A stretch of DNA of 63,791 nt, filler included, from Rhizaria sp. SCN 62-66 (lineage: Eukaryota): the NCBI GenBank assembly GCA_001724265.1. It is 5 parts of 5 records of this genome, joined end to end, with 100 filler letters (N's around TTAATTAATTAA, not from the genome) between each part and the next. Parts side by side here need not be neighbours in the genome. Positions count along the whole stretch, not along the records: positions 14,564 to 20,630 come from MEDY01000658.1; 4 more parts are not named here. One strand, written 5' to 3'. The first letter of the stretch is position 1. Every line of letters starts with the position of its first letter. The notes beneath the pieces are model-generated. The model was not told the DNA's origin. It saw only the letters and a list, made by a program, of their open reading frames with translations, and did not search any database. This document shows positions 1 to 53,858 of the stretch, piece by piece. The position numbers were made by a program, and so were the translations under genes.

Positions 1-323
1 AATCGAACGAAGTTCACTTTCAGAAACATACTTAAACATTTTTGCGCACTGAAGACAATCAGACCAGAGTACGGATATTTTGTCCCGCGGTTCGGATATC
101 TTTGTCTCTTGTAACATGTATTTTGTTTCATAAGTGATAATGTGTTATGTGTCGTCTGACCATGTGTAAAATTATGATGTACATGTACATGTACATGAGT
201 GTCCTATGAACGATTAAAAACGTTGTTTATAGATATTGACAGCGATCTGGGTCAAAACAGAAGCAAAAAGCTCGTAGACGGGCTAAGGAGATAGATAGAA
301 ACATATAAGCAGCTGCAGACGTG

Positions 324-2204
324 TTACCTTCTTGGCACACATAAAACAACCGGAATAGACGATTGTGACTCCAGTTGAAAAGAGAGAGATCCGATCTCAT
401 CCCAGCAGTCACCGTTGCCGCGGAGGCTGCAGCACTTGGCTTCAGCAATTGCGACCAAGCTGTTGTACATGTACATCAAAAAATTAAACTGATTACCGTC
501 AGCGCGGTCATAGTCCAAGCCATTCTCAGTTGTGTAGTCAATGGGCCCTCCAGTGGTCCAGTCGTGATGAACGTGCACTAGATCACGCGACCAACAGCAC
601 TGCATTCGGCAGCAGGCTCGCCGGGCACGGCGGGTACACAAACGTCGAGGTCCCAGGATGTCGTGCAGGTTTGTCTGAAGCGCAACACACGAGACCGCGT
701 TGCGGGCATTAATCGTGACGCGCGCACTAAAGAATATACGCTTGCGCGCCCGGGCCTGCAGCAGCGCCAGTGCCGCCGCAGACGGCGCACCGGCCACGCG
801 CAAAAGAGCCAGCCGCACTCCAATTTTTACGGCCACTATCCCGCCAGCGCCGCAGGTGGCCGCCCTTTTCGAGGCTCCACGCCCGGTGTGCATTAAACGC
901 CGTCTCCTAGACCGCGTTGGTGAGTAAAAGACAGTCGGGTCAAAGAAGGAGTAGATCAGCTAGAGGAGAGAGTAGGGGTTGCCGTCCCTGGTGAATGTGC
1001 GCAGGTCCGTCACCGCGGTGCAGCTCTGCTCCTCTGGCAGATGTCTCGCTGTGTGTACACGTAACAACGCAAAAGATCGAGCAACTGCGACCCGCGCTCC
1101 TTCACAAACGCTGGTGCAAACGCCTTGCCGCCCGCAGCAAGCTGGCGTGGCGCGCGCAAGAATACATTGAGGTTGCTCACAAATGCGGCGTTGGCGCCGA
1201 GAGCGTCACCGCCAAACGCGGCCGCGGTCAGTCCCGCCACGCAGCACTTGGCCGCGCCGCGCTGCGCCAGATTTTCCGCGGTCCGCGCGGCTTCGGCGAT
1301 GTCCTGCACGGTAGCAATGCGGTGCAGGGCGTTAAACGCTGCACGCGCCGCGATCTCTGTCTGTTGCGCGCAGCGCGGCTTGGGACTCCGCTCGAGCAGC
1401 TGTACCAGCTTGACGAGCACGCTGCGCCTTAGCAGCTGCCCCGCGAGCGCGAGCAAGGCCGCCGTGAAGCGCGCGAGCGCGGCGCCTAGCGTGGACACCG
1501 CGCCCCCGCTCAAGTGTCCAGAGGAGCGGCGCCGCGAGCGCGCGCGCAACGCGCTCCAGTGTAAAATCACGCCCGAGCGTCGCGGCCGGCAGCGTGGCAA
1601 CGCGGGTTATTACAACGATGAGCGCCTTGGGCGGGGGATATTGGCCGTCCGCGAGTATGTAGTGGCCGAAGTCTTTGTTGCGGAACAGCATGTGCCACGC
1701 AAAGTCAAAGAGTCCGCTCTCAAACATAGCCTCAATGTCGTCGTCAGCGGCAGCGCTAAAGCCAGTGCCCGAGTCAGAGTCATAAATCGCGTTCACCAGA
1801 GCACTTGCCAGCACCCGGGGCATGTTGTGGTGGCACCCGCATCGCAGGTAAATTGCGCCACAGCGCGCCGTAGCTCTCGCGCAACAATTCCCCAGACGCA
1901 GCGCAGCATCAATCGCGCGCTCCAAAGCAGTACCGCACGAACAGCTTCCCCTCTCCGTCCCCGACCAGCCCGCGCGGGCGCTCGCTTCAGATTGCCGGTC
2001 GCTGCAAAACTCGCTTGCTGCAGCAACTTTGGCGCATAATGAGCGTACCAGCGGCACGCTTCCGGTTGCGTTCGACCTAGCCGCTGCTAAAGAGCGCGAG
2101 GAGAGCCCGCCAAGCACAGTCGCCGCGTCCCGCAGCGAGCACTCTGCAACGGCCGCAGCTCCACGACGCAGCGCCGGCCTTACCGGCAATGAGCATGGCG
2201 TCAA
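324..2204 (-). pseudogene. Degenerate helical-repeat (ARM/HEAT-like) coding remnants with frameshifts
   Basis: GC-rich ORF pieces 1332..2204 (DDDIEAMFESGLFDFAWHMLF) and 1010..1600 (VLVKLVQLLERS...AAFNALHRIAT) read as amphipathic helical repeats and switch frame near 1510. They lie next to ARM paralogues on the same strand. Family assignment is weak. Confidence 0.3.
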
Positions 2205-2374
2205 AGACCTAACTCACTCTGTGCCTGATTTTGTGCCGCGTGCTCGCTCCGTACGCCCAATTTCCCGAGAACCGCCTCTCTCTGTCCCGAGTCTGAAAGT
2301 CGCCACTGTTGCTACCTCGTGCAAGCAGCTTCACGGGCGCCGCTATGACAAAGATGGCTGGTCGCAACGGCCGC

Positions 2375-2462
2375 GGTCACCACGGCCGTGACCGCTGCAA
2401 CGGACTGCGCCGCGCTGCTCTCACGCGTGTCCGCGCGGCCGCTGTGGGCTGTGTCAGCGCGA
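2375..2462 (+). repeat. Dispersed degenerate repeat, copy 1
   Basis: ggtcaccacggccgtgaccgc...ctgcgccgcgctg...gcggccgctgtgggc resembles 5520..5607. A more decayed copy lies at about 5090-5180. Confidence 0.6.
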
Positions 2463-2803
2463 CTCAGGCCGCAATAGCCGTGCTGCGCGAGGCTTTGTGC
2501 GCCGAGGCTGCCGCGCGCGGCGAGTCCATCCACGACACCGACTCCTCGGACTCGGACATCAAGTCTGCAACGCGTGTAAAAACGATGAATATACTAGGAC
2601 ATGTATGATGAATAAAAACTGTTTGTACATGTACGTTTATAATCAGAGAAACCACTGGTGTTTTTGTCACCGGGCAGATTCATAATGATGTTCGGTCTCC
2701 CACTAACTTCAGATGAAAATTACCTCGCTGTGTCGCGTCTGAGCAGCTCCAAGGTTATCGATTGTTTTCTTTTTCATTTTCGTGTACGGCTACTAGGACG
2801 TAA

Positions 2804-4274
2804 TCAAAAAGAAACGGTCGTATGGACAAGCTGCTCTGCTTCGCCTTTGGCGACGTCGCCCAAAATGCTCACCAACAGCTCGTGCAGTTGCATGGCTTCG
2901 TCCCGTGCACTGGCGAGCGCCTGCTCGCTCTGGATCAGCGTCGGCCAGGAAAATGTTGCGGGGCTCCGCGCCCTGGGCCCGCACCGCGGGGTCCGCGCCC
3001 GTGTCGCCGGTCTCGACCATTGTGCGCACGACCATGAGCACGAGCGTGAGCAGCCGGCCCAGCGGCCTATGGGGCGGCGGCCCCGGCAGCGCAGCCACAG
3101 CGGCCAGCGTCGCTGCGCAGTAGGTCACCGCGCCGGAGCCGAGCAGCACGAGTGCCATGGCGGGCGTGCCGCCGTCGTCGGGCGGCGCACTTTTCAGTGC
3201 GTTCCACATCACCCACATCAGCTCGCTCGCGATCGGCCACCGGTTGGACTCGGCGTCGCCGGGTGGCGGTGCGGGCACGCGCAGAATGAGCGTCTGGACC
3301 GCGTTGGATGCAAGCACGCGCGACACCATCGCGGCGTCCGCGGCCAGCAGGTTCGACAGCAACCACGACAGCTACATCATTGCTTCGGTGTCCGTGGGTC
3401 CCAGAGAGCGTGCAAAGCGCTGCAGGTGCGCCAGCGCGGGCGGGGTAAACGCACGGTCGGGCTCGCCGTGAAAGAGCGAGGCAACAATGCCGGCAATGCG
3501 CAGCGCAGGCGTCCGCAACTCGCGGCTCACGTGCAACTGGGCAAGGATACGCAAAAAGATGTCGTCGTCGTCCACGAACAGGTACTCAAAGCGCACCCCT
3601 ACGCTCTCTTTGCGGAACACAAACGACAGGGACCACAACACGTCTTTCAGAGCGTCAGTCAAACGCGCGGCGGGAAAGCGGCGTAGCGCGAAGAAGAGTT
3701 GCGGCAAGGCCGTCACAGTGACTCTGAACGGGAGCGGTGGCGTGACCCTGAGGAAATTTGATACTGTCCACGAGAGAACATTGTGCAAAGCGACCCGAAT
3801 TTGGACTGTTCCCCCGTACACATCCGCCATATAGCGGCACACGTGCGCAAAGACTCCGCGCTCAATGAGCGAGTCAACAGCCTCGCGGCCCTCGCCAGCA
3901 ATGTTGCCCAGCGTCCAAAGCGCGTTTTCGACGATGTCCGTGGGTTGGTCAAGGTAGAGCACGCAGCAAAGCTTCTCAGGAACACCGCGTAAAAGCATCA
4001 CGCGGCAGCCTTCAGATGTCGCAGCCAAGTTCTTAAAAACCCGAAGCGTCTCATGCGTGCGCTGAGGCTCGTCAGCGTCGGCACAATACTCCAGCGACCT
4101 TAAAAACCAGTCAAGCACGCCGTGCTCGAGACACTCCGTCGCGAAAGTCTTCAGATCGTAGTTCTAGGTAGCGCTCTGCCTCCTCAGACTACGGAGCCCG
4201 TCGAGTGACGTTGTTACTGACATCAGGTCGGCGAGTGCCTCATGAAACGAGAATGGATCATACGGGACAGACAT
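2804..4274 (-). CDS. Importin-alpha-like armadillo-repeat protein with two in-frame TAG codons (4164-4166, 3372-3374) and a frameshift near 2941; may be a pseudogene
   Basis: Importin-alpha ARM motifs ENALWTLGNIAGE, SWTVSNF, DVLWSLSF and SWLLSNL. One frame runs from ATG 4274 through both TAGs to about 2941. A plausible C-terminus (TLIQSEQALASARDEAMQLHELLVSILG) follows in another frame and ends at TGA 2804-2806. A basic IBB-like stretch (IRKLRRRVASRRSDEL) lies upstream at about 4410-4470. Confidence 0.7.
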
Positions 4275-5519
4275 CACTGAAACAGTGGAGCGTACGCTGT
4301 TTCAGGCTCTGCTGTTGGACTCAAAAGCTCCAGTAAATACAAGGTTAAAGCGGAGCTCCAAGCTATATAGCAGGGAAATTGATCCACTAAGGCCTAACAA
4401 CGCCTGTTTGTGCAAAATAAGTTCGTCGGACCTCCTGCTCGCCACCCTTCTGCGGAGTTTTCGTATGGAAAGACGTGCCCACAAAAAAACATATTTGATT
4501 TAATAGATACAGTTAGTGAATTAAAAGCACCAATGCGTCAACTGTTTGTTCTCTGTCGACACATATCATCGAAGTGATCGAATTCTGAGTCGCGTCATTC
4601 TCCCTCTCCTTCTCTTGCTTCGAAAGCGCCCGACATTCGGTTGTCAGATGTCTTAAATCGGATCGTCATTTGTGGCGATATATGGATGGATGAAATTTAA
4701 GAATAATATCTGCACAATTCCTCAATTAAACCTGTTGGGAGGAAGAGATCATTCTGATATCACTAGTTTACGTCGGCCAGGTCCCTTGCGAAGCTCGACG
4801 TCACCATGACCTTGCACACGAGCACCGTGTGCGCGCCTATCTACGATTGACTGTGCATTGACGCTACTTCCGAGCTTCAATTAGTGTACGTCAATACGTG
4901 TAGCCGCGTTGTGCTCTTTTCTCTTTCCTCCAGTCCGACGTTAATCCCTCGATACAACGACATGTGTGCACCTCCATGCATGCACACATCCCACTGACGC
5001 CGCACCTGGTGAGTGCCTACTTACAGTCTTCCGTGCCTTCACAGCCCATGTCTCTGTCAACGCTGTAGCCGTTGTTGCCGCCATGCGTGCGCGGCTTCAC
5101 GAGCGCTGCGACAGCGCGTCGAGGTCATAGACGCTGTCACAGTGACCGTGACCGCTACTTGTGTGCGGCCGCTTCAGGGGGTGATATTGCTACGCTGACC
5201 GCGATGGACGCGGCCCCCCCCCCCCTGTTCCCCTGTGACTCAAACCTCGGGCCTGAAGAGACAAGCCTTTGAAACTAGGTTATCCAAGTGCCTGATAAGT
5301 CGTACGCACATATTATTACAATCTTCCTCATGATATATTACATATTTATGTTAATATGCGTTATCTCTTAACACCGTACCAAATGTGTTCTGCTGCTCAT
5401 CGTTAGGAACTAGCGAACCTGTGTGACAGAGGACATTGAGTGCTGATTTTGCATCCTCGCGAGGCTGTTCCTTAACAATGAGCGCTGCGACGGTGAGGGC
5501 CAGTGCCAGTTATGACCAC

Positions 5520-5607
5520 GGCCACCACGGCCGTGACCGCCATGGTGGGCTGCGCCGCACTGTTATTGCACACATACGTGCGGCCGCTGCGGGCGGCGAC
5601 AGCGCGG
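5520..5607 (+). repeat. Dispersed degenerate repeat, copy 2
   Basis: ggccaccacggccgtgaccgc...ctgcgccgcactg...gcggccgctgcgggc, similar to 2375..2462. Confidence 0.6.
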
Positions 5608-6405
5608 AGGGGACTCTGCGCCGTTGCTGTTGCGGCAGTGTCTTCTGGAGCCGCAATCCAAGTCCCCAAACAATATAAAGCCGGTGGGTAGTAACACGTA
5701 TGCGCTACTTAACCAAAAACAAACGGGTGCATCAACAAAGTGCGTTTAAGTTCATTAGACAGAGGCTGGGATAACCAGGAGCACTTGGAAGGCTGAGACT
5801 TTGCACACATTCACGATTATATACAACGCTAATTCAGAATTTCAAAACAAATAAACAAAACTGCATCGACATTAAAAGACTAGTGGGTATTGCACATCAA
5901 AAAGTTGAACTTAGAGTCGTTGTTAATATTACGCTAGATCCTGTTTACCTCCTGTCAGAGCATTTGTAGTTGACGTGAAGGGCGTTTCCAAGCGTTAGTG
6001 GTGGTTAAGAGGGGGGGGTGTGTGCCACTTTTCCTTCACCAAGAACAATGTCGATAAATAATCGTCAAAAAAGGCTGTGTTCAAAGTGTACAACATTTTA
6101 CTTGTAGTATCTCTTTATAAATTTAACTGTATTTCATGGGAGCTTTATTTCATCAAGATCTCACCCCTGGCTACTCTTGACCTCGCATGCGCGCCCATCT
6201 GCGATCGATGCCTCATTGGCGTCCCGCTAAGCTTTTGTAGCGCGGCTACCTTGCATGATGAAGCGCCAACTCCATAAGTCTGCAGTGAGCGATCTTAGGC
6301 GACCCCCAATGCGCCACCTTGGCAACGGTCTGCCGCTGAGCGACCTTCGGATGCTTTTGAGCTCTCCTACTATGGCCACTGCGCCATATTAATATGTTAC
6401 ATTTG

Positions 6406-6929
6406 TACGCGCGAAATTTTTCATAAAGGGACTCTCTCACAGGAAAACCACAGAGAAACGGCACCCAACGACCTACCAAGCTCCGGATATTTTAATACTG
6501 AATTACAAATACTTATCTGTGAACACACATAGAAGGATTCTGTCTTTAAAGTGTGTGTTTTCTGTGTTAAAGTATCTGTTATCTGAATATAATTCGAATT
6601 ATATGTATTTAAATGCTTATCATTTACACAAAAAATGGTTAGCCACAGCTACGGATATTTTTGCCCGCAGTAGTAAAGGGAGCCTTAGGAGGTCGTTGGG
6701 TGCCGTTTCTCTGTGGATTTCCTGTGAGAGAGTCCCTTTATGTAAAATTTCGTGCGTAACACACACTTTAAAGACAGAAGAATCCTTCTATGTGTGTTCA
6801 CAGAAAACACCACCCTTGTACTAAAGTACTTAGGACAGTATTAAAATATCCGGAGCTTGGTAGGTCGTTGGGTGCCGTTTCTCTGTGGTTTCCTGTGAGA
6901 GAGTCCCTGTATGTAACATTTCGCGCGTA
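6406..6929. mobile_element. Non-coding foldback/MITE-like element with nested inverted repeats
   Basis: 6406..6500 is a near-perfect inverted repeat of 6836..6929 (about 95 bp). A second copy of the right arm lies at about 6690..6758. An inner pair at about 6518..6559 is inverted to about 6758..6802. The core is AT-rich with no credible ORF. Confidence 0.7.
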
Positions 6930-7634
6930 GCACAAGAAACACCGCCTTTATATTAATATCGCGACCGGCAAATGCTGTCGAATGGAATTTTATGCAGAAT
7001 GTCGGCGGTAACAACATATTTCAACATCAAATGACGCCAACTCAATGGCTTTGACACCCTCTAACCATGGAAATGACCAGGGGCCATACCAGTCCAGTCA
7101 AAATCCCCCGTCCCCTACAACTTGGGGTTCCAAAAAAGGGGTGGGTTCCAGCGAATCCAGGGAATGAGCGAAGCTAGGTGTCCGCCTAAACTGCAACGAC
7201 AGACTGCGAACGTCAGGGAATGGCGTGTGTCGGCGGCCTGGGTGATGGCGTGAGCGATGGGAGCGGGACTTTTGTCAAGCTTTTCGATCGCGATACGCTT
7301 TCCCCAGGTTTGAACATTTCGTTATGCTGCTTCATGAACTGGACTCGAGGGAGCAACGCCGTACAGGAAATGAGCCCCACTTTTGAGTGGGAATATCACC
7401 GAGATTACATCGACAATCCAGCTTTAAATTGCATAATCGTTTATTAACGCGTATTTTCTGTTATATGAAAATCTTTTTACATGCTAACAGTAGTTTAATA
7501 TCCCTTAACTCTCTCGTCTTGAAAGTGTCTCACCCACGTTCTTTCTCAACGCTCTTGCCCCACTTGCCTCACCCTCAACAGCTTCGCCCGAGTTCGAATC
7601 CCGACCTCGTATGGCAAGCTCTCCATCGAGGCTT

Positions 7635-7734
7635 NNNNNNNNNNNNNNNNNNNNNNNNNNNNNNNNNNNNNNNNNNNNTTAATTAATTAANNNNNNNNNN
7701 NNNNNNNNNNNNNNNNNNNNNNNNNNNNNNNNNN
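7635..7734. other. Artificial assembly spacer (44 N + TTAATTAATTAA + 44 N)
   Basis: The same 100-nt construct occurs four times, and the 12-mer places stops in all six frames. Confidence 0.97.
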
Positions 7735-8380
7735 CACAGACCGAGCTTGCTATCGTCGTCAACGCCGCCGCTCAGCGCGGGCGGCACGGGCGCGACCGGG
7801 ACTAACGTCTGGAGCACGCCCGCGGCCAGAATGCGCGCCACCATTGTGGGGCCATCAACCATCATGTTCGACAGCAGCCATAGCAGCGTCTGGATTGTAT
7901 CGGCATCGCGGGGTCCCAGTGCCGCAGCCAGCCAGCGCAGATGCGCCAGCGTGGGTGCCGTGAAGACCTGCGTGGACATGCCGGTGTTCAAAGCGGCAAT
8001 CTTGCCGAAGAAACTCAGTGCGTGCGCACGCCGCTGGGCGTTGTCGTGCAACTGCTCAAACACGCGGTCGAAGACGCTGGCGTCCCCACAGTCGCGATCA
8101 AGCAGTACGTTGTTGCCATCAGATGACCCCATAAAGTTTTGAGAACCTAGAATGTCACCTAGCTCCGTTCGGCCTCATCCAAGTCCGACGAGTAGGCCAA
8201 GGACCAGAGTTGTCACTCGAAAACGCCGTCCTCCAGAAATGCCGCAAGGAGATCTGACAAATCGTCGTGACCCTCAGTAAGTTCCTTCAGCTGTTGAACC
8301 CCCTCGAGGGATGTTGCGGGCGACATCAAGTTCGCAATCACCTTGCGAAACGCGACTTCTTCAAAGGGTCCCGCATGCAT
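7735..8380 (-). pseudogene. Importin-alpha-like ARM paralogue, pseudogenised, with its 3' end lost in the gap
   Basis: The N-terminus (PFEEVAFRKVIANLMSPATSLEG...LEDGVFE) and later part (FTAPTLAHLRWLAAALGPRDADTIQTLLWLLSN) align with the 2804..4274 gene. There is a TGA at 8213-8215 where the paralogue has Trp, and a frameshifting internal deletion of over 100 codons near 8135. Confidence 0.75.
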
Positions 8381-10339
8381 CGCTTCACTGTGTTGAGTAG
8401 GTCTTTACCGGATAATCACTCTCTAAACTGTTTGCTTGAATCACCAGTAACAGGCTGGCGGATGCTCATCTCACGTGAGTTAAGCGGATATAGCAGAACA
8501 AATGTCCCGGTTTATACCTTAAAGTGAAAGGATTACTACATGTTCTTTTGACAGCTGCACTTAAGACGATTACTGCAATCGCGGTTGCCGTTCATGATCC
8601 TAGATAGATGTCACGTCAAATGATGGGTTTAAGTGAACAAATAATACATGTCAAAGCTGTCAATTAGATTAACTCGGATCATGTAATAATAATTGTATTT
8701 TAGGCCATACTTTAAGAAAAAAAACGTTCTAGTTGAGCCTTCAACTCGCCTGCGTTTCCCCTGTAATGATCCTACATGTCGCAGGCGGTCGCTGTTGCAG
8801 CAGTCGTGCATCTCTGAGTAGCAGTGTGCATTGTATGCTTTCCACTGCAACTTATACGACGATGACGCGCGGCAAGACGGACGGTTAGAGACGTGAAAAT
8901 CGTGTGATCAATGTGATACTGGGAAATTGTTGGTGGGGGGGGGGGGGGGGGGGGGGNTGGAGGAGCGGGAGACACACATGTAAGACAAACGCGACAGCGT
9001 AAAACGAAACAAAAAAATGAATAGCCAAAATAAGGAAGAGTATAAACAACGCATCGTATCATATTGAGTGCGATACCAATACGTAAAAGTGCGATAACGA
9101 TTGAGTGGGTAGAGTGAGCGAGAGCGTGAGCGAACAAAAGGCAAAAATCGATTTGAATCAATCGTATTCGTCAACTTACTACGATGGTAGCGAGGCGACG
9201 ATGTTAACATTTAATCAAGCACATAAGCACAAGCGGTCGAACTTGTCAATGACGAGAGGTTTGACATGTACCCGTGAGGCATGCGTACGCGGTAACATGC
9301 GTGCGCAGTCAGCAGAGCAAAGCAAGCTTATGAACATGTGAAATCAAACACAACCACAAGCGAAGAAAGGCATAACAACAAAGGCAGCAAAGAGACTACC
9401 TCAGTCTCGGCCGCTGATGATGCTACTGTCACAATAGTCGTCGCAGTTGGTTGTGTGATTGTGTTGATGCCGATCTCAATCGGTTACTTCCTCCGTCTCG
9501 TATTACGGTGAGACGGAGCAAAGCGCACAAGAGAGACGTGAAAGAAAAGAAATTAAAAAAATAGATCGTAAAATCGTCTTTGAAAAGTTCCAGCACAGAC
9601 AAAATGGACTGTTTCATCTTGCACATAAAGTGTGAACACAGAAACAGATAGGCGAACTGGACAACGACATAAACGTATGCGAATAGAGTAAAAGAGCACA
9701 TCAAAAGAAACAGAAACCCCAATAAAGAAAGAGTGATCAACAAAGTTACAAATCAACATGATCAGCAACTGCTGCTTTGATTGACACGTCAAACGGCAAC
9801 CGCAACAACAAGCAATCAAGCGAAACGCAGTCGCGTCGCTGAATTCGATTCAAGTAAAATAAGTGCGTTCTGAAAGGGAAATTTAAGAAAGCGCAACGCT
9901 AGCTTAAACCACAGTCATTGCAGAGATATAGCGTCTTCGTGACGCAGGTTTGATATAGCTATAATCATCATTATTGCAATCTCACACTCATGAATAAAGA
10001 AGAAATAAAAAGCACGAAGCACTCACAGTCAGTTAGGATGTTACATATGTACAGTACATCAAGTTTCTTGACTGTTGTTGTTGCTGCTGTTGATTGTGTG
10101 ATAAATGTGTGATAAAATTGATGTTGGCATTGTGCCGTTGGTAACTTTGTCGTAGTAGAAGTTGTTGCTGTTGATGTTGATGGTGTTGAAACATTATTTG
10201 TGGAATGTGAGTTTGGTTATTGACAGTTTGTTGATCTAGTCGTAATCAATATTGTTGCAATCTCACGCTCATGAAGGAAGAAAAAAAAGCAAAAACAAAA
10301 AAAAAAACGAAAACGGAGAAGCTTACTTGCCGACTGCCA

Positions 10340-13300
10340 TCACAGCTCAGCTGCATCGGCCTCGGTGCCCGCAGTGGCCGCGTCCGCGCCCGCAGTTGCC
10401 GCGTCCGCGCCCGCGTTGGCCGCGTCGCCGTTGTCGCCGCCGTCGGCCTCAGCCTCGGCAGAGCTGGGCTCGGCGTCGCCGTCTGCGACGAGGGGCTCGT
10501 CGTCGCCGCCGTCGCCGTTGTCGACGTTGTCGCCGTTGTCGTCCACGACAGGCAACGCCTGTTTACCGGTGGGTTTCCTGTCACCGCCGGCGGCCGCGAA
10601 ACCCTTGCGTTGCTCGGAGTCCAGCTCCCAGGGCGCGGGCGTAGGGAACATCGTCTCGAAGGTGTCCGCGAGACGGTCCGCGAAGACCGGCGGCGCATCC
10701 CCTTCGATTGCGTCGTTGAGACATACAAACGGTCGTTTGCGGCGGCGGCCCGCAAACATGGACTGGATGTGGGTAAAGAGCGCGTCCGGGTCTTCTAAGT
10801 GCTTGTTCGAGATGCCTAAGTAGGACACCGAAGAGCCCTGGAGGGGGGACCGCGCATGGTACAAGGGACGGTACGGCAAGTGCGTTTGCATCATGACAGC
10901 GCGCGCGAGAGACCATGATAGCAGCTGATCGAACGACATGGTGATGTGAGCAATTTGAGCGTCGCGGTCGGCAGCAAGGGCAGCGGGGGTCACACGGACC
11001 GTGTTTCCGTCATCAGCGTCATTGTTGTCGTTGTCGTTGTTACCGCTCGTTGAGGACAAAGAAGTGGTGGTGGCCAATGTCGTGGGGCGGGGGCGAGGAG
11101 TCGAGCTAGAGCTGGAAAATGAGGTTTGCTTTGATGAGTGGGTGATAACTGACGCAATCTCAATGAAAGCAGCATCCTTTAGATTTGCATTTGCGCTCGC
11201 ACGCGCAGCGACAGTACCAGTAGCAGCTGCAGTGGCAGTGGCAGTGTTCACGTCGTTGTTGTTGTCGTCGTTGTCATCGTCGTCGGCGTCGCTGTCAGAG
11301 CCGGACGCATTGTCTGCCGTTGCCGCAGCGGCAGCAGCAGCATCATCACCCCTCGCCTCATTATTCCCAGCCTCGTTGTCATCGTTGTGATCAGCGGTCG
11401 CAATAACTGTGTTCTCGTCGATCGCGCGTGTCACGGCGTCGCCTCCGGCGCTAACGTCCACATCAGCAATATCGCTGGTTCCGCCGTCGCCGCCGTCGTT
11501 GTCGTCGTCGTTATCGAGCGGGGAGCGGACGTTGGACTCACCGTCGCCGCCGTCGCCGTCGCTGTCATCATCGTCGTCGTTGTTATTGTCCGAGACGTCA
11601 ATGGGCGCAGGGGTAAGGACAACGCCGGACTCGTCGTCGTCGTCGTTGTTATTGTCCGAGACGTCAATGGGCACAGGAGTGAGGACGACGCCGGACTCGT
11701 CGTCGTCGTCGTCGTCCTCGACGTTGCCGGTGCGGCTGCGAGGGGTAATGCCAGTGTCACCAATGGGACTCGCGCCAGCGCCAGTGCTAGAGCCAGAGCT
11801 AAAGCCAGAGCCGATGCCACTCCCAGTGCCAGCGCCAGTGCCGGTGCCAGTTGAGCCGGTGCCAGTGGAGCCGGTGCCAGTGGAGCCGGTGCCGGTCGGA
11901 GCAGCACCGCCAGTCTGACTCAAAGCGCCAGTGCCGGTGCGAGTGCCAGTGCCAATGTTACTCCAAACAGAACTGGAGCCGGAGCTAGAGGCAGGCTGGG
12001 CAATAGTAGAGTCATCCGTCTCGGTCTCGGTCGCAGTTGAGGCAGACCCGGGCTGCTGGCTCTCGGACGGCGGCAGCCGACTCAGCGGGTGCGCGCCTGC
12101 ATGCGTGACTTTAAGGTGGCTGGCGGGCGGGGCGTAGCGGACCCAAGGTGAGGCGAGAATCATGCGCTGGAAGATGGGCTCGGTGAGGAGCTGTTCGACG
12201 GCAAAGACCTCGGTTCCACCGGGGATTAAAGAGGGCATTGTCGGGGCGCGAGCCAGCATCGTGTGCCATGTGCTCGTGCTGAATCGCAAAACAACGAAAT
12301 ATGCGATTATATAACACAAAGTATAAAAATCGAGGTGAGGTCATGATCTTTGATGCAATGCACGAGCAAATTATTCAAAAATAGCAAAAGCAAAATAGCA
12401 AAAGCAAAGTTTAACAAAAATCAAGACTGTGAATCGAGCTTTCTTGTCTTTGCTTGTTTTCGCAGTAATTTCGCATTATGCCATGCAAAATGTGATGTAA
12501 TATGTGGAACGTACCGAGTGTCAGCGTCGGGCGCAGTGCCATTTGGCACACAGAGGAAATCCCACTCACTCATCCTCTGCGGCATCCTCTTGGCGGCGCG
12601 CTTCTGAATGTCCGCAGAGATCTCGGCTTCGGCCTCGGTACGGCACAGGGGCAAGGAGAGGGGTGCGCGGAAGGGCCAGCGGCCGACACGCTCGCGGGAC
12701 GTCACTTTCAAGTACTCAGGGATGATCTGAGCGTGCAAATTTGATAAAAGAGCAAAAAGGAGTAGAATTCGGTGTAAATGTCAGAATAGTGATATAAAAC
12801 TCATAAATAACATTAATTATTGCAAAAATACATTAAATAATACAAATTTGTTTTAAAATAGGTTAAAATAAGTGCTACATAATCATAATACGTACCTGTG
12901 GCTTGAAGAGGTCCTCAAGCAGTGACCGCACCTCAATACCCGTCAACAGGCCATTGCAGTCGAAATCATGCGCACCAAACAGCGCCTGCGCGAGCGAGTA
13001 CAGCGACGGGTGCTTAGCGCCCAGGAGGAAACCGGTCATGGAGTAAGCGCCGGTAAAAGCGCCTAGAGAGAGAAAACAAAGCAACAAAATGCGAAATTAA
13101 ACAACATAGACATGAGCACAGGACAATAAAACGAACCAATATACACAAGTTCTAGAAAGGCATAACAAACCATGATAGAATCATATCATAATAAGTGTAG
13201 ATATCTCATAGATACACAAAGATGTTTTGCTATCGCAAAGTGTGACTCGCACAGTGAGACATACCTGCATGCGCGCGTAGGCGTGCTTGTTGCCGACGTG

Positions 13301-14463
13301 CGGCTTATGGGGCGCCGGCGTATCTACCGGGTTGACCACAAGCTTGCGCATCATCGCCATTGAACGTGCAAGCACACTCTTGTGACTAGCTTCGACCTGC
13401 TTCTGCGGGAGCGAGGACGCGCGGATGAGCCGTTTCGAGTACACGGGCACCCACCAGGCACCCGAGACCAACGGTACGGGCCGCACGAGCCCCGACACCG
13501 ACGGAAACGCGTCGACAGGCCACGATAAAGACGGCGCCGAGGCCAGAGGCAGAGCGCGCTGCTCGGCGGCGAGCGCCAAAGCGGCCGCGTCGCCGCCCTC
13601 CCGCTGGAACACCGCGTACCGGGCCTAAGGGAGATCGCAGAAATGAACAGAGATAACACAAGATTAGTGCAACGCACAATGATAATGTGAATTTCAATAG
13701 AAAATTGTACATAAATATGAAATTTAAACGTTCGATTCTAAAATTCTTTAATATCACATATGTTGACCAAATATAAGATTCTGGGTGAAAGGTTTGCAAA
13801 GAGTAGTTTTCAAGGACAGCAACGAACCTGAGTGGCGGTGTCCGCGTCGTGACGCTCACCCTCACGCCTGTTGTGGTACGATGTGGCGAGCACCGACACG
13901 AGCCAGCCGAGCGACGTGCCGGTCGTGCGGTGCGAGTGGAGCTCCGTGGCAGCCTTGGCGGGCGGCCTAACATACCCTTCGGGGAAGACACCGAGCTCCA
14001 TGGGCGCCTGTTGCGCGATAAAAAGCCCGTCGCTGGCATTGATGCCCGACTGAAAGCGCGCGTAGGCGTTCTCCTCGGTGACCCTGGCGCCCCACGCGCG
14101 CACGTCGCCAATTAGCCCCACGATGATGGTGTACATCGCAGTTTGCTTGCTGAGAAGCTTGTTCACGCGCGCTGCCACAGCCGCATGCGTGTCCCGGACA
14201 ATGTTGGCGTGCTCGGCGGCGGCAGCGCGAAACTTCAAATGTGCCGCCTCGGCCGCGAGGGCTTCTGGGGTGTTCAACCGGCGTGAACGCGAGTTAGAGC
14301 TGGAACTACTGGAGCCGCGGCGCAGAGGCAGTGGCGCGGCAGGGCTGTTGGCCATGCTCACGGTCACACTAATAACACAGTCGCCGCGGTCAAACGCGCA
14401 GGCCTCGACGTCGCAGGCGCTGTCACAGACGCCGTCGCCGGTCCACGCGGCGGGGCAGCCCGG
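10340..14463 (-). CDS. GNPTAB-like Stealth-family GlcNAc-1-phosphotransferase, 5' partial. Exons 14463-13828, 13624-13265, 13062-12896, 12726-12515, 12278-10340
   Basis: LNR/Notch repeat (GCPAAWTGDGVCDSACDVEACAFDRGDC), CR3-like PAPHKPH, EF-hand-like FDCNGLLTGIEVRSL, and Stealth CR4 (FVCLNDAI...FETMFPTPAPWEL). Four GT-AG introns, three phase-consistent. Exon 3 is out of phase (see findings). Stop is TGA. Confidence 0.8.
11571..11715 (-). repeat. 66-nt tandem duplication within coding sequence (DDDDESGVVLTPxPIDVSDNNN x2)
   Basis: tgttattgtccgagacgtcaatggg occurs at 11581 and 11647. Adjacent 15-nt TGTGS-coding repeats lie at about 11835-11895. Confidence 0.85.
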
Positions 14464-14563
14464 NNNNNNNNNNNNNNNNNNNNNNNNNNNNNNNNNNNNN
14501 NNNNNNNTTAATTAATTAANNNNNNNNNNNNNNNNNNNNNNNNNNNNNNNNNNNNNNNNNNNN
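14464..14563. other. Artificial assembly spacer
   Basis: N44-TTAATTAATTAA-N44. Confidence 0.97.
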
Positions 14564-15047
14564 GGGCGCGCAGCAAGGCGAAGCGGTTGTCACTTGCGGC
14601 TGCGACTCGCTCGATCTGGAGAGCGATAGCCTGCTCTGGGGTCTCGAGGGGTGCGCTGGGGGTGTAAGGAGGCGGAAGACCGTCAAGTGGATCGCCTAGA
14701 GTGGTTGCAAGCGCCCGCCAGAGGCTCGGCGGCAAGTTTGCGGGGTTCTTGAGCAAGAGATTGCGTATCGTGACATTATGCGTCAGGCGGCTAACGAAGG
14801 CCATGTAAGAGTAGACGCGCGGCAACGAGTTGAGGTTGAATGGAAAGACAGTATGGAGCGGAGAAGCCGGGAAGTACGCCTCTGGGGGATACGCTGGAGA
14901 GCTGCTGTCAAGAGCGGAGTAGGCGTGTGAGACAACTTCTTCGTCAGCGTAGACGGAGGCGGCGCATGACAGAGGCGGTGTCATTAGACCGAGAAGGAGC
15001 GCTATCAGGGCAAGCAGCGTGCCCATGGCGCCATCGGCCAAGCGCAT
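14564..15047 (-). CDS. N-terminal fragment of a secretory-pathway protein (signal peptide or anchor); possibly the 5' end of the Stealth gene across the gap
   Basis: Hydrophobic MGTLLALIALLLGLMTPPLSCAA. The frame is open into the gap, on the same strand as and upstream of the 5'-truncated Stealth gene. Confidence 0.55.
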
Positions 15048-16009
15048 TGCGTTGATATATAAGACAATACGATCTTGGAAGCCTGGTATCCGCTGAGCCG
15101 GACGTTGTTGCGTTGCGTAGGATGACGGACGTGAGTGATTTCAAAGTTATGGCAGCAGGACTTCGTGAAAATGAGACCTTAAAAGTGCTAAACACAACAG
15201 AAAAAAGGCGATAAAATAACATGATACAGTATCTTAGTTAGTTCGATGGGTTTCTATTCAGTATATCGCATTGAAAACACGATAAAGTGGAGTAAATGTT
15301 ATGAGGATGGCAAGTTGTGACCGTGGAGTGGGGGGTGTTCTGGAAACGGCTTTCACCAGGTGACACAGGCTAAATAACATATCAAAACAGTATGATATCG
15401 TTTCAACGCAAGCAAAAAACTCATATACAATATAGAAATTCACGTTTGGAACTTCAATGATTCATACGACTCGATATCAAAAACACGCGGTTCGCTGAGG
15501 TCTCCTTCGTGGCATTTTTCAGCAAGCTTTAGCGTCACCATACGTCCATCGAGAGGATATAGCAAAAGTTGTACAGATAAGAGTCGCAGAGAACTTTCTA
15601 TTTTGAAATTGTACTTCGAGTTACCCTCCAAATAAGCGAGCATACTGACCTAAAAAGCCACCAGGTCGACAGCTTGACCGGTAGCAGACAGTCTTCGCCT
15701 GCTCACGGTCCCTCCGAGTCACCAGCTAGCTCAAGCGAGGCGATTTGTGATGCAAGATATGCGACATAAAGTTCATTCCCGGAGTTAGCGGTGGAATCAA
15801 GGAGTTTATATTTGTTTAATTACGTTAATTCCAGCATAGACCGTGTTTAGAACTACCATCTAAATACTTTAGCCGCAGCGCAGGAAGCCACCCGGCGCCC
15901 CCGATCGCAACTCCGCGCAGCGCACACAACCTCGACCGCTTCTTGGACCTCACGCACACGCGCTTCACACTCAAGCTCGCCGCCGCCACCGCTGCGAACA
16001 CCGGGGCCA

Positions 16010-16193
16010 TACCCCATCGAGAAGGTCTGGGAGATCGTCAAGACTCAGGTTTCCCGCATGGCGGTCAACTCTCGATAATACGGTGCATCAGTGTCTCGCG
16101 AACTATCCCCTGGAGATAATCGAGAAACTTGTGATTGGTCACGATAAAGTGATGAAGAAGGTTAAGAAAAAAATATATGTGCCAATTAAGTAA
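16010..16193 (+). mobile_element. Relic of a Tc1/mariner-IS630 (DDE) transposase C-terminus
   Basis: YPIEKVWEIVKTQVSR matches the (SPDL)NPIExxWxxxK motif. After a frameshift, NYPLEIIEKLVIGHDKVMKKV resembles the Tc1 C-terminal helices. Not present in the ORF track. Confidence 0.6.
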
Positions 16194-16375
16194 TAAATAA
16201 TAATATGACAGTGATATTAAAATATTACTTCTTAAAAATGTATTTTGGTATCTCGTTTAATGATAAAGTGCTCACTCACTGTTACACTGACTGTGTCTCC
16301 AAAAACATACTAATAGTAGTACGTTGTAATATGTGATGCAGAACCCACAACTCTCTTGAATAAGAAAGGATTCCT

Positions 16376-19300
16376 TCAGTACTCCCTGAAGATGCGCCCG
16401 CCGCCGCCACGAGCGCCGGTGAGACTGGCCAGCGTGGCTTCACTTGTCTCCTCTGCGCCCTCCGCGCCAGTACCAGCACCAGCACCGGTACCGGCACGAG
16501 TGGCCGCGCTCGTGGGGGCGGCGACGCCGGGGCGGGACTGGGAGCCGCGCAAGGCGGTGGCTTCGAAGACGGCCATCTCGTTCAGGTCGTAGGCGCCCGT
16601 GGGACCTTGAAGCTCGCGGATCTCGAGCAGAAGCATGCGCTGGTCTTCAGGCCTCGAGTAGATGAGCGGCTTCTCCACGATGGCGGCGCGCTCCTGGTAG
16701 TCGAGCTCGGACTTGAGCATCACCTCGTACTCGTAGCCCTGGTCGACCAGAAAGCGCTGGCGCTTGGTCGCGTACTTGACCTCGCTCGTGTCGGTCGAAA
16801 TGAGCGAGTAAAAGTACGCGTCGATCGTGCCCGACTTCTTAGACTTCGGGCGTAAAATGCGGCCTGTGAGGCGGAGGAAAAAACAAGAAAGCAAGGGGAT
16901 GGAGTTAGAAGAAAACTGATGATGATGTGATTTGTGAAAAACGTCAGACTGGACAGTTCAACACACACTTGGACAAACACGAGACTTTGTTGAACAATAC
17001 AATGCCAAATTTTAAAGAACAGCAAAACAGCAGAAGCGTTATGCGTACCGAGGCGCTGCGCCTCCTGCCTACGCGAGCCGAAGTGCGCGGAGAGCTGGAT
17101 GATGACGTTGGTGTCGGGCAGGTCGATCGCCGACCTTGGAGATGAAGATGGTGTTAAGCCCGTTGTTGGAGGAGAACTCGCGGAAGATCTCGACGCGCTC
17201 CTGGTCGGGCACGGAGCCGTCAATGAAGGGCCGCTTGAGCCGGTTCGCCAGCAGCTGCAGCGCAACGATTGACTCGCAGAAGATCATGATCTTGTCGCCG
17301 CGACGCTCGTGCGCGCGCATGAGGACCTCCATGGCCATCACCTTCTCCGGGTTCAGCGTCATGAGCAGCAGCTTCTTGTGCGTGTCGGCACCAATGTACT
17401 CGCGAAAGAAGAGCGGCGACATGGGGCACCACACCTCGCGGCACATCACCGTCGCGATGAAGCCCTGCGCGCTGAGGTCTTTCCAGTTGGCCTCGTAGAG
17501 CTTCGGGCCCAGCATGAAGTACAAGTCCTCGATCTTGCTGTCTTCACGTACAAGCGTGGCCGTGAGCCCAAGCTTGCAGCGCGAGTGCGTCACGCGCACG
17601 CACTTGGAGAACTTGTCCGCGGGCGCAACGTGGACCTCATCCAGCAGCACTCCTCCTGCGTGATCATGTCCATCACGGCCTTGGCGGCGTCGGAACGCTT
17701 CTGCTCGAAGGCTATCATCGAGTAGGTCGTGATCACCACCTTGGCGCCCGCGGGCACGGGGTTCTTGTTGAAGCGCGTAAAGGTGCACACGCACTCGTCG
17801 GGCAGATTCGTCCACAGCTTCACCTGGCGCCGCCACTGCTCGACCGCGACGGCCGTGGAACAAAAGATGAGCGTGGAGCGCGCGACGGTGGCCATGGCCG
17901 TGATGCCGACCTTACCAGCGCCGCAGGGCAGCACGATGATGCCCGACCGCGCGCGCCCGTTGCCGAACATCTTGGACAGCGCCTTCTCCTGATACTCGCG
18001 GATCTGCGCGCTGGGCCGCAGCTCCAGCGGTAGCTTGACCGCCGTGCCCGCCGCCGCCTCGGCGCGGAAGTCGTACTCCTCGAGCATGGGGAAGCCCAGG
18101 TCGTTGGAGAGTTTGCGCACCGTCTCGACCTGCGCGGGGTCCACCTCAAATGCAAACACAAACTCGGCGGCGCCCGCGGCCGCGGCGGCGCTCGCGCGCA
18201 CGCGCCGGCTCTTCTTGACGCTTCTACTACCCGCATCAGTCGCGGTGTCATCGTCGTCGGCCTTGGTCTTGCTGAGGGAGATGCTGGTGTCCTCGTCTTC
18301 TTTGAGCATGTTCCCTCGCAAGCGCGCGCGCTTCTGCGGCTGGCCGGCATCGGCCACGCCCGTCTCAGTCTTGACCTTGACGGGCTTAGCCGCCGCCACC
18401 TCGTTGTCATCGTCGTCATCATCGTCGTCGTCGTCGTCGTCGTCGATGACGCGGCGTGCGCGACGGGCCTTCTCCGCGTCGGCCTTGACCTTAGCTTTGG
18501 CCCTGGCAAACATGTCGTCGTCGTCGTCCTCGCTGTAGCGCGGCTGTCGATGCGCTTATTGACGCGCTTGCTGTCCTCCCTGTCACCGCCCTTCGTCGCA
18601 CTGGAGCCACTGGCGTTGCCGTCGTCCTTGGCGTCAAGCTCGCCGGTGCCCTGGAGGAAGATCTCCATGTCGGCCGCGTCGAGCCGCGTGACGAGGAAGC
18701 CCGTCTCGTCATCTACGGCCATGCGCGCGGCGGCCGCGGCCTCGGCCTCGGCGTCGCCGGCGGCCGCGGCCAGGATCGACGAGCGCTTCGAGTAGCTCCA
18801 GTCCGTCTCCTCGGTCTCCGCTGTGGCCGTGCCGGCGGCGCCCTTCTTGGGCTTGGCGTACGCGGCCAGTGACCGGTTGTCCACCCGCGCGGCGGCGATG
18901 TCCGGCGAGGCCAGCAGCTGCTTCAGCACTTCGGGGTCCAGCGCCTCGACGTAGTAGCGCCGGTTCTTCAGCACGAGCTTCACCTTGCCGCAGCGCTCCG
19001 TATAGCGCGTAATAAAGCGCACAACCTAGGGGTCGACCTCGGTCTTGGAAAGCTTGCGCAGGCCCTGGAGAATGTCCTCGGTGTCGAGCCCCAGCGAGGC
19101 GGCGGCGTAGAGTGAGTACTGCGTGATGACGTACTCGTGCACGTACTGCGGCCGCGTCACAGGATCCGAGATCGCGATCATAAAGTCGCACGCCTGCTTG
19201 TACACCGGCGACCAGGACTCGAGGAACACGTGCCGGTTGGGACACACCCAGAGCGGGCGCCGCTCGTGGCTCGGGCGTAGCGGGAGACGGCCGAAGTTGG

Positions 19301-19382
19301 ACTTGAACAGCGCGTCCATTGCGGCCGTGCGCGCCGCGGCGTCTGTCACCACCGTGGAAGGGTCAAGCGCGTCGTCGGACAT
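16376..19382 (-). CDS. XPB: TFIIH DNA helicase/translocase XPB (ERCC3/Ssl2). Intron 16864..17048, in-frame TAG at 19026-19028, four short deletions
   Basis: Motifs [94 protein letters not shown] and [11 protein letters not shown]. Phase-1 GT-AG intron. Stop is TGA. Confidence 0.95.
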
Positions 19383-20630
19383 AGCGAAGGAGCGAACAGG
19401 AGACCGCGTGGGCGAGGCGAGGTTTGACTGTGTGCTTGTGTGTGAATAAAAGTTGTGTGTTGGCTTGTTGTCGAATGCTGGCGGAGTTTTGATCTACAAA
19501 GAAAGAAAATGAGGAAATTACGCAAAGAAAAAGAAGTATAGAATATAAAAGTACGTTTCAATGGTAATACGACGTGTCGTAGCGTTATTGTGGCATATTG
19601 TAACGAGTTATGAACTACATTGGATAAGGTCGTGGTTGTGGTGTCCCGAGACCGAAGATGAGGCTTTGAAATTGAGCCACGCTCACAACAAAGATATGCT
19701 TTCCAAGAGTTGCTAAAATAAGATATAAAAGAAAAGTACAATTAATTCCAGGATCCTTGCGTATAAGGGTAATCTATGATCACAATCACGCGGTGCAGCT
19801 TTGTGTTCTCAATGGCTCTCTGGATCGGCATAGTCACGCAAGATGTACGTTTGTGGTGGCTGGTATTTTTTCACTAGACAAGCTTGATCTTGACGTGAAT
19901 CAGGTCAACGATAAGGTTGTTCAAATATGTAACATAATCGCTATACTTATATACGTTATAGCTTTATTAGACATATCATTCTTGTCAATTCTGACTACTG
20001 TTCATATAGCAGTCATATTTTCATAGATGATTGCTGGATCAACGGTAGCCGTTGCGGCGTGTCAATGCTAACATGTCATTGCGTTACAAGAACACATCTA
20101 ATCACTCAATTTCTATTATAACTCGTAGGGGATTATTACAAACTTAAGATGTAAACATATGGCTTGCTATCTGTACACTATCTACTTAGGACTACCGTGA
20201 AGTTTGTCCCCGCTAGAAGACTCACGTCATCGCGAAGTTGGCGTCAACGCGTCCACAGCAAACCAGAACAAGATCTGAGGGCTTCTGGTGGTAGCAAACA
20301 GACTAGAGCAGAAAGCACATACGTAGGGTTCATAGTACACGGTATCAGTAAAGCTTATGGAGCTCAGCTGGTGGTCAGGAGCAGTAGCTTGCGGGAGGAG
20401 ACAGCGCCAAGTGGGAGAAGCGGCTGATGGTCGAGACAAGCCATCATACAGACCCAATCCGAGCTAGCTAGCAATGCCCAGACTAAACGCACAGTTCATC
20501 CATGAGGCGAACACAAATCCACCTTCAGGGACTGTTACCGTCGACATTCTGCATAAAATTCCAGTCGACAGCTTTTGCCGGTCGCGATTTAAAGGTGGCG
20601 TTTCTTGTGTATACACACTTCGTTTTCCTG

Positions 20631-20730
20631 NNNNNNNNNNNNNNNNNNNNNNNNNNNNNNNNNNNNNNNNNNNNTTAATTAATTAANNNNNNNNNNNNNN
20701 NNNNNNNNNNNNNNNNNNNNNNNNNNNNNN
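20631..20730. other. Artificial assembly spacer
   Basis: N44-TTAATTAATTAA-N44. Confidence 0.97.
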
Positions 20731-49461: not shown

Positions 49462-49561
49462 NNNNNNNNNNNNNNNNNNNNNNNNNNNNNNNNNNNNNNN
49501 NNNNNTTAATTAATTAANNNNNNNNNNNNNNNNNNNNNNNNNNNNNNNNNNNNNNNNNNNN
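49462..49561. other. Artificial assembly spacer
   Basis: N44-TTAATTAATTAA-N44. Confidence 0.97.
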
Positions 49562-52500: not shown

Positions 52501-53858
52501 CCCGTCAGAGGGCCAGGAAAGGCCGATAGGGAGAGCACAGGCAGCGATGACGATGACGTTGCATTCGCACTGGCATTGGCCGTAGAACTAGCGTTGGCGA
52601 GCGAGAGCAGAGGAGCGAGCTTGGGGAAGACTGAACAGCCAGAGCGAGTGTGGGCCGCAGCGGCAGACTGGGCAGCAGAGTGACCGTGGGCGGCTGAGTG
52701 ACCGTGGGCGGCGGCGAGCGAGCCCGGGGCCGCGTTCGCGAGCACGAGTGCGCCCGAGGGGGCGAAGGTGGCGAAGACGCGGCCGCCGGCCTTGGGGCAG
52801 CGGGCCAGAGGCACCTGGGCCGGTGCATTCAGAGCAGGGGCGGCAACAGCAGCATGGGCGGCGGCAGGCATGGCGTTGTGCACAGGCGCAGTGGCGGTGG
52901 GCGCGGGGGCATAGACGGAGGCAGCAGCGGCGGCAGCGGCCGGCGGGGGCGCCATCTGAGCGGGGTAGGCGTTCATGCTGTCACTGGCAGCCGTATTGGG
53001 GCTGCCAAAGGCGACCGCGGGCTGCGGCGGCTGCGCTTGCGGCTCAGGCTGACACTGCGGCTGCGTCTGTTGCACTTGCAACTGAGGCTGTTGAGGCTGA
53101 GGCTGTTGCAGGGGAGCTGGAGGCTGTGACGGCTGCAGCGGTTGCAGAGGCTGCAGGGGCGGCAGTGGCGCCAGGCCCGGGAGCGGCGACAGAGACGCCA
53201 TTGCAGCGGCACTCGCAGCGGCCTCTGCAGCAACAGCAGGAGCAGCATGAGCAGGAGCATGAGCAGCAGTAATGTCTGAGGCTTGTTGGCCATAAGGGGC
53301 ACCGTATACACCGTAGGGGCCAGCGGCGCTGCTATCGCCAAGCGCGGACAGCACAGACGCAACGGGCTCCGGCACAGCGGCAGCAGCAGCAGGGACAGCG
53401 GCAGCCTCAGGGACAGCGGCGGCAGCAGCGTCGTAGTTGCTTCGCTGAGGAGGCATACCGTATCCCAGTCCGTAGTCGTCTCTTGCGCCCGAGAACGTGT
53501 CGAAGATGCCATTGGACTCTCTATGGGCGTCGAACTGGGTCTGGGTCGTGGTAGCAGCAGGCGCAGCGTGCGCAAAGGAAGCGGGCGCAGCCGGGGCAGA
53601 GGCAGGTGCACTGTAGTCCGCCACAGGAGAAGCTGGGGCGGCGGAGGCTGCGGCGGGCTGCGCTGCAGTGGGGGCAAACTGGGCCAAGTGCGGCGGCAGC
53701 GTTGCGGGGGCGTCAGAGTTAAACACGGGTCCGGCGTCGGAGAACATGGAGAAGGCCATGTTGTCCACCATAAGCGCAGATGAGGAAGCCGAGGCTGCTG
53801 CGGCGGCGGGGTCATCCGTCTGGTCTGCGGCGAACGCAGAGCCAAATGGGGATGACAT
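49562..53858 (-). CDS. SEC16: Sec16-like COPII/ER-exit-site scaffold, 3' partial, with in-frame TAG at 49851-49853
   Basis: Ordered motifs of the Sec16 central conserved domain: ATFAPSGALVL (FGFGGKL-like), SAFPGPL, LALLWRVI, QTLLAAGNRAGAV, RLGDVL...AAHVCRILAG, IQAQQVLELA, LLSLGLSQQA. Disordered P/Q-rich N-terminus. Confidence 0.7.

Follow-up and report, generated by a model that had tools for sequence, protein, structure and literature searches.

An in-frame TAG in a damaged XPB gene copy from GC-rich eukaryotic contigs of Rhizaria sp. SCN 62-66

The XPB locus and its in-frame TAG

The stretch of DNA considered here (hereafter the window) comprises 63,791 bases from the genome assembly of Rhizaria sp. 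SCN 62-66 (GCA_001724265.1), in the form of five contigs joined by N44-TTAATTAATTAA-N44 linkers, and the minus strand of its third contig carries a copy of the XPB (ERCC3) gene that is interrupted by a TAG codon in frame. Because the contigs were joined, gene order across the linkers (synteny) carries no meaning. The TAG was first pointed out in a sequence-only reading of the window. The features of the locus are listed below; the sizes of the deletions were estimated from the protein of the closest relative (P0006) and not from DNA.

16376 to 19382, minus strand: XPB/ERCC3 gene copy, from the ATG at 19382-19380 to the TGA at 16378-16376, in four different frames (Pfam, tblastn)
19026 to 19028, minus strand: in-frame TAG, codon 119 (sequence, translation, orthologue alignment)
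18496 to 18537, minus strand: lesion 1, where the frame moves to -1 and the 'IDQRAAMG'-type motif of the relatives breaks off after 'IDSRA' (tblastn segments stop at 18537 and resume at 18495)
17908 to 17913, minus strand: lesion 2, an in-frame deletion of 6 nt at the aag/gtc junction (17911/17910; comparison with relatives)
17646 to 17655, minus strand: lesion 3, a frameshifting deletion of about 10 nt at about 17651/17650, W-G-L being lost before LLDEVH (comparison with P0006)
17121 to 17131, minus strand: lesion 4, a frameshifting deletion of about 8 nt at about 17127-17125, N-S being lost in SKVGDNSIDLP (comparison with P0006, Pfam)
16864 to 17048, minus strand: GT..AG intron of 185 nt, AT-rich, phase 1 (read from the sequence)

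The assignment to XPB/ERCC3 made in the sequence-only reading is borne out by Pfam, which places the N-terminal 274 residues in Helicase_C_3 (E 2.4e-30) and also detects ResIII, and by an ungapped match to human XPB in the PDB (query residues 32-171 against chain residues 64-203, E 2.2e-44). The N-terminal XPB domain, the SF2 helicase core and the ERCC3/RAD25 C-terminal domain follow one another in this order, colinear with the orthologues. The match to ERCC3_RAD25_C comes in three pieces (profile positions 1-118, 118-146 and 146-225, with E values of 7.9e-42, 4.3e-11 and 7.1e-22), because the frame changes divide it among three open reading frames (ORFs) in different frames, and tblastn of P0006 against the locus also gives matches in three frames. 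P0006 has 1,021 residues and is 75% identical across the query ORF; the TGA terminator of the window gene falls one residue short of the P0006 end, and the intron occupies the position of an insert that is read through in frame in the P0006 ORF.

On contig 3, the minus strand carries the sequence gag gtc gac ccc tag gtt gtg cgc ttt att, which puts the TAG at 19028-19026; the reading and flanking peptide given earlier are reproduced exactly. In translation, the TAG is residue 119 counting from the ATG at 19382. It stands opposite the Gly of the 'vpdgimqfi' stretch of human XPB and, in tblastn, opposite Glu-109 of P0006, again ungapped, so that the gapless colinearity that had been claimed, with no room for an intron, holds against both proteins. 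The suggested alignment to ERCC3 orthologues was run on 120 sequences and shows the TAG column to be variable and mostly polar (G 50, S 43, E 9, P 5, gap 4, K 3, D 2, and M, N, A and R 1 each), in agreement with the description of the site as a single variable polar position. The GC content of third codon positions (GC3) in the TAG frame is 0.86-0.96 on both sides of the TAG. Together with the ungapped homology, this places the stop inside a homologous coding frame and rules out a chance ORF boundary or an intron. The TAG is thus confirmed as a genuine in-frame stop interrupting a well-conserved XPB gene copy. An intron around the TAG was considered and is excluded by the ungapped homology; the one intron of the gene is the AT-rich GT..AG intron of 185 nt listed above.

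Introns aside, the locus does not keep to one continuous frame: besides the single TAG, the frame changes three times, and none of these changes is an intron, since conserved residues are missing at each of them. The Walker A motif reads GAGK-VGI, against GAGKTLVGI in relatives, so that the Thr-Leu after the Lys is gone and no intact motif (G-x-G-K-T/S) is present; Thr-Leu is found in P0006-P0009 and Ser-Leu in L001, a eukaryotic XPB described below. There are, thus, five disabling lesions within about 2.85 kb of XPB coding sequence. Given the three frameshifts and the loss of Thr-Leu from Walker A, the locus as assembled cannot encode an active helicase, whatever the TAG means, and cannot yield an ATP-hydrolysing XPB. 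The sequence-only reading had already noted that the site is weakened by other lesions of the gene, and the three frameshifting deletions and the Walker A loss make this point more strongly than it had been stated. Programmed frameshifting at the three frame changes was also considered and rejected: no slippery run is visible and the missing conserved residues are beyond repair by slippage.

In-frame TAGs elsewhere in the window

What had been missed is that the XPB TAG does not stand alone: four genes of the window have five TAGs in frame between them (one in XPB, two in an armadillo-repeat gene, one in an ankyrin-repeat gene and one in an Ala-rich gene). The other four, all on sense strands, were found by searching for stops flanked by long ORFs in the same frame, followed by a gene-by-gene check. 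The contigs, the genes concerned and two control genes are as follows.

1-7634; 7735-14463; 14564-20630; 20731-49461; 49562-63791: contigs 1 to 5
7635-7734; 14464-14563; 20631-20730; 49462-49561: linkers
2804 to 4274, minus strand: armadillo-repeat (importin-alpha-like) gene, contig 1, with TAGs at 4166-4164 and 3374-3372 and a frameshift near 2938-2945
58820 to 58822, minus strand: TAG (58822-58820) of the ankyrin-repeat low-complexity gene, between 366 and 1488 open codons (codon usage)
49851 to 49853, minus strand: TAG (49853-49851) of the Ala-rich gene, after 1349 open codons and followed by 96 codons to the contig end
20731 to 49461, plus strand: Ala-rich ORF of 9,577 codons, open at both contig ends, control
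61965 to 62759, plus strand: last exon of NADH-cytochrome b5 reductase, intact, with a TAA at the family C-terminus, control gene

By codon-usage score, the coding frame continues past all five TAGs; at the ankyrin and Ala-rich TAGs, the frame that holds the TAG scores best both before and after it. GC3 shows the same continuity at four of the five (XPB, both armadillo TAGs and the Ala-rich gene) and is weak at the ankyrin TAG. The bases immediately 3' of the five TAGs are GTT, CTG, AAC, TCT and CAG.

Ahead of its first TAG, the armadillo-repeat gene encodes 45 residues that are conserved in homologues starting from the same Met, which implies that translation must cross this TAG. The second TAG (codon 310) lies in an ARM repeat, at a position occupied by Glu (8) or Asp (4) in all 12 printed importin-alpha alignments; across 15 aligned family members the column holds E 6, D 4, T 3, K 1 and S 1, with Glu in the closest relative, P0129, and Thr in a paralogue within the window. 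An ENA record, P0128, is 98% identical to the window ORF, from which it differs at 3 residues, and comprises 3 member sequences on 2 contigs, the longest of 17,484 nt. The limits of its ORF are exactly those set by the two armadillo TAGs, and the window's own ORF is a separate record; as P0128 is distinct yet has the same limits, the armadillo TAGs are not private read errors. The C-terminus of the armadillo protein is found in a different frame from the part before it (E 1e-5 and 6e-5 for P0131 and P0132), and about ten family residues are missing at the junction. The homologues, of 317-496 residues, are predicted to be unbroken under the standard code. A GT..AG intron of 55 nt was considered for the frame change and not adopted, given that family residues are missing and that the segment is GC-rich, unlike the known intron.

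The armadillo family has many members at 30-58% identity in ENA and Logan records (13 matches at 1e-30 or below), and the paralogue within the window, on a different contig, lies at 7737-8174 (minus strand). The ORFs of P0128, P0129, P0131 and P0133 share their start, a Val-to-Met position that lies 17 codons beyond the first TAG of the window gene; this common start could reflect a shared upstream stop or an intron.

The in-frame TAG is rare in the window, with 5 occurrences in about 15,100 codons against about 420 for GAG, or about 1% of GAG. The density of off-frame TAGs is 2.4-fold lower in the 9,577-codon ORF than in the other genes; when this difference is allowed for, simple arithmetic gives a chance of about 0.07 that all five TAGs would fall outside that ORF. 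The codon usage of the window also predicts that 57-65% of single-base nonsense changes lead to TAG, with GAG as the commonest source of such TAGs (24%). Because of this nonsense spectrum, the restriction to TAG and the position opposite Glu are weak discriminators. Gene ends consist of four TGA (XPB, ankyrin, Stealth-domain and armadillo genes) and two TAA (cytochrome b5 reductase and an unverified membrane-protein ORF); the XPB TGA and the cytochrome b5 reductase TAA stand at the family C-terminus.

Interpretation of the XPB TAG

The simplest reading of the locus is that of a gene copy inactivated recently, whether as a null allele or as an unprocessed pseudogene. That this XPB copy is dead or damaged and its TAG a Glu-to-stop lesion is the explanation that we tentatively favour, at a probability that we would place somewhat short of even. 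The copy has lost a few bases at four sites, with three frameshifts and one loss of Thr-Leu from Walker A as the outcome, and has retained its start codon, the conserved intron and the TGA stop; on this reading the TAG would be one more lesion, most likely a G-to-T change in a GAG (Glu) codon, and a working XPB would be present elsewhere in the genome. What the sequence shows is the TAG with its colinearity, the four deletions and the strong conservation that remains; we infer that biology and not faulty assembly produced the lesions, that GAG was the ancestral codon and that the genome has another XPB copy. The Glu of P0006 at the TAG site is one G-to-T step from TAG, which, in conjunction with the nonsense spectrum, gives a TAG opposite Glu the look of an ordinary nonsense mutation. 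The armadillo gene, with its two TAGs, is also frameshifted, so that stops and frameshifts travel together, and the 9,577-codon ORF has neither a TAG nor a frameshift, which makes the lesions gene-specific and not genome-wide. Damage is needed for the XPB and armadillo genes under every hypothesis, and the same process can also explain their TAGs.

Several observations weigh against a dead copy. The five pieces of the XPB copy were aligned separately to 115 orthologues, and the 196 columns conserved at 95% or more were examined: 185 are unchanged, eight are changed, all conservatively and six of them in common with the relatives P0006-P0009, and three are missing, these being the deletions themselves (Leu in lesion 2, Trp in lesion 3 and Ser in lesion 4). 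Functional relatives have 5-14 changes at the same columns. The copy has no excess of substitutions at conserved columns, and at the amino-acid level it appears to show no sign of relaxed constraint; deletions and one stop without substitution decay are compatible with damage in assembly or with a pseudogene or null allele of very recent origin, and not with an old pseudogene. A functional copy was also not found in a limited search, which did not reach the rest of the genome: tblastn of P0006 detected no second XPB in the window, two protein searches (176-562 and 491-2,000 residues) gave no near-identical XPB ORF, and a contig scan returned 76 matching stretches, only one of which is an XPB (L001, 46% identity). 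Genes that look intact in the neighbourhood carry in-frame TAGs as well. The ankyrin gene (1,855 codons) and the Ala-rich gene (at least 1,446 codons) have one TAG each and no frameshift, and such long TAG-bearing ORFs must be kept open by selection; TAA and TGA do not occur in frame in any of the TAG-bearing genes. These are four of about eight genes recognisable in 64 kb, a very high load of premature TAGs for the standard code unless many copies are redundant or decaying. None of the six gene ends is a TAG, in a small sample of which two ends are verified by homology. Recoding is, however, called for only by the two TAGs in otherwise intact ORFs and by this absence of TAG terminators.

At the highly conserved columns, only two changes are unique to the XPB copy, and both are mild (Leu to Met in 'DF[L]IAIS' and Ser to Ala in 'YVE[S]', at 19160-19175 and 18945-18960 on the minus strand). 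L001 (300-2340 on contig CAYYMF010000050.1) is a eukaryotic, intron-containing XPB with 54% GC and 46% identity to P0006, used here as a control: all three of its helicase motifs are intact, which indicates that deletions of this kind are not a routine outcome of metagenome assembly. The L001 contig is binned as 'uncultured Chitinophagales bacterium' and is probably eukaryotic DNA that was mis-binned into a bacterial genome.

Alternatively, UAG may be decoded as an amino acid, most likely glutamate, with UAA and UGA still acting as stops, in which case the microdeletions need a separate cause, whether assembly error or real damage; this is a serious possibility, although we are inclined to doubt it. 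Real support for recoding comes only from the pattern of five in-frame TAGs across four genes, without any TAA or TGA in frame. This pattern is accompanied by the continuity of the frame past the TAGs (five of five by codon usage, four of five by GC3), by the Glu to which both homology-informative sites point (XPB and armadillo codon 310), by the conserved armadillo residues upstream of the first TAG, which require that it be crossed, by the recurrence of the armadillo TAG limits in P0128, which excludes one-off read errors, and by gene ends made up of four TGA, two TAA and no TAG. The TAG is nevertheless far below the frequency of a neutral synonymous codon and is missing from the 9,577-codon ORF, both TAG-bearing genes that can be checked by homology are frameshifted, so that a damage process can also have made their TAGs, and nonsense mutation of GC-rich codons also predicts stops that are only TAG and point only to Glu. 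The paralogue within the window, with its Thr at codon 310, and the armadillo homologues unbroken under the standard code are further points against recoding, as is the result of tRNA and RNA-family scans, which found no tRNA gene of any kind and no Rfam match in the 63.8-kb window. In its full form, recoding would mean that a GC-rich uncultured eukaryote, known only from metagenome contigs, has begun to assign UAG to glutamate, with UAA and UGA retained as stops, and that UAG, still rare at fewer than 1 per 1,000 codons, is tolerated in roughly every second gene, XPB among them, a scenario that we regard as conceivable but rather doubtful.

It has also to be considered that the TAG and the deletions are sequencing or assembly errors on short, poorly supported contigs and that the real gene is intact. 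The density of lesions does fall with contig size (five on the 6.1-kb contig, three to four on the 7.6-kb contig, two on the 14.2-kb contig and none on the 28.7-kb contig), deletions without substitution decay are unusual for an old pseudogene, and the window is made up of small N-linked contigs, one of which has a G-run ending in an N at 8957. Errors seem an unlikely explanation, given that the armadillo TAG boundaries recur in the distinct record P0128, that frameshifts are missing from about 42 kb of coding sequence elsewhere in the window, that a rate of random substitution errors giving five stops would, by arithmetic, be expected to break the 28.7-kb ORF too, and that L001, an XPB of a different metagenome bin, has the corresponding motifs intact; to our knowledge, deletions of 6-10 nt are also untypical of consensus errors. 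Far less probable still is a case-by-case bypass under the standard code, in which programmed readthrough, or A-to-I editing that turns UAG into UGG (Trp), would leave the gene functional. In its favour, TAG is the only stop codon that such editing can convert to Trp, and each of the five in-frame stops is a TAG; the correction of premature UAG codons by such editing is known in some fungi. Trp is, however, found at the TAG column in none of 120 XPB orthologues and none of 15 armadillo homologues, the differing bases after the five TAGs argue against a common readthrough context, and the frameshifts and the Walker A deletion would be left unrepaired.

If the dead XPB copy is the correct reading, the case is an ordinary one, which warns that the contig set holds damaged genes and that in-frame stops found here should not be taken singly as recoding. 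If recoding were true, it would be a reassignment of UAG alone to Glu in a GC-rich, non-ciliate eukaryote in which the codon is still rare, that is to say, an early-stage or low-usage reassignment in a lineage and a base composition without a known case, and it would bear directly on how stop-codon reassignment starts.

Comparison with known systems

The XPB copy resembles an unprocessed pseudogene or null allele of a housekeeping gene in its in-frame stop and several frameshifting insertions or deletions, and in keeping its intron, start and stop and a high similarity to functional orthologues. The nuclear codes with which the window may be compared differ from it in various respects. Reassignment of UAG alone, with UAA and UGA kept as stops, is described for the rhizarian exLh (to Leu), with 384 in-frame UAGs in 71 genes, and for Iotanema spirale (to Gln) (PMC5304391). 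The window resembles both in having only TAG in frame and TAA and TGA at gene ends; it differs from exLh in having 5 TAGs in about 15,100 codons, and from both in that the aligned residues point to Glu and not to Leu or Gln.

UAR is given as a Glu codon in Blastocrithidia nonstop (PMC12153298), and UAA and UAG code for different amino acids in an oligohymenophorean ciliate (PMC10553269). The two informative sites of the window suggest Glu, as in Blastocrithidia and this ciliate. In the ciliate, it is reportedly UAG that is read as Glu. Both organisms are AT-rich and use the reassigned codon often, whereas the window has a GC3 of 0.7-0.9 and very few TAGs. Trypanosomatids have almost no cis-introns, and the two introns of the window (XPB and cytochrome b5 reductase) argue against a trypanosomatid.

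In Amoebophrya sp. ex Karlodinium veneficum, roughly every second gene model, those of DNA-repair genes among them, has been described as containing ambiguous stops, and the authors argue against pseudogenes on the basis of gene essentiality and suppressor tRNAs, frameshifted alignments having been discarded beforehand (PMC12005148). The window is similar in that about half of its genes, essential ones included, contain sparse in-frame stops, and in posing the same choice between pseudogenes and recoding. It differs from Amoebophrya, which has an AT-rich genome, suppressor tRNAs and all three stops in frame (PMC12005148), and frameshifts, absent from the alignments retained for Amoebophrya, are the main problem in the window. 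GC-richness, the rarity of the codon and the co-occurrence of frameshifts set the window apart from all of the codes compared. A literature search returned no description of a lineage that is GC-rich and has UAG in frame as a rare codon, a result that does not establish that none exists.

Other features of the window

The genes of the window are eukaryotic, with GC-rich exons (GC3 0.68-0.95) and AT-rich spacers and introns, and low-complexity Ala/Ser-rich proteins are abundant among them; the nearest relatives of the XPB and armadillo proteins are JGI, ENA and Logan records. A Pfam sweep of 94 further ORFs, with TAG translated as X, matched only the LNR domain and cytochrome b5 reductase, so that it provided no extra conserved gene for testing the TAG, and no eRF1 gene is present in the window. 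The whole NADH-cytochrome b5 reductase gene (61593-62759, plus strand) is intact and consists of a first exon encoding a membrane anchor, one AT-rich intron and the last exon, which has a GC3 of 0.95.

A GlcNAc-1-phosphotransferase-like gene (10343-12340 and 13813-14463, minus strand) encodes Stealth CR4 (E 5.9e-12) and Notch/LNR (E 5.8e-7) domains set apart by a long spacer rich in Asp, Asn, Gly and Thr; it has no in-frame TAG and terminates with TGA. On the same contig, at 8935-8957, at least 22 G are followed by a single N within an AT-rich stretch, a likely trouble spot of the assembly. The 9,577-codon ORF fills the entire 28.7-kb contig 4, is extremely rich in Ala, has 74% GC and contains no TAG, TAA or TGA in frame; PHD-finger-like Cys/His motifs were spotted by eye, independently of Pfam, in its translation.

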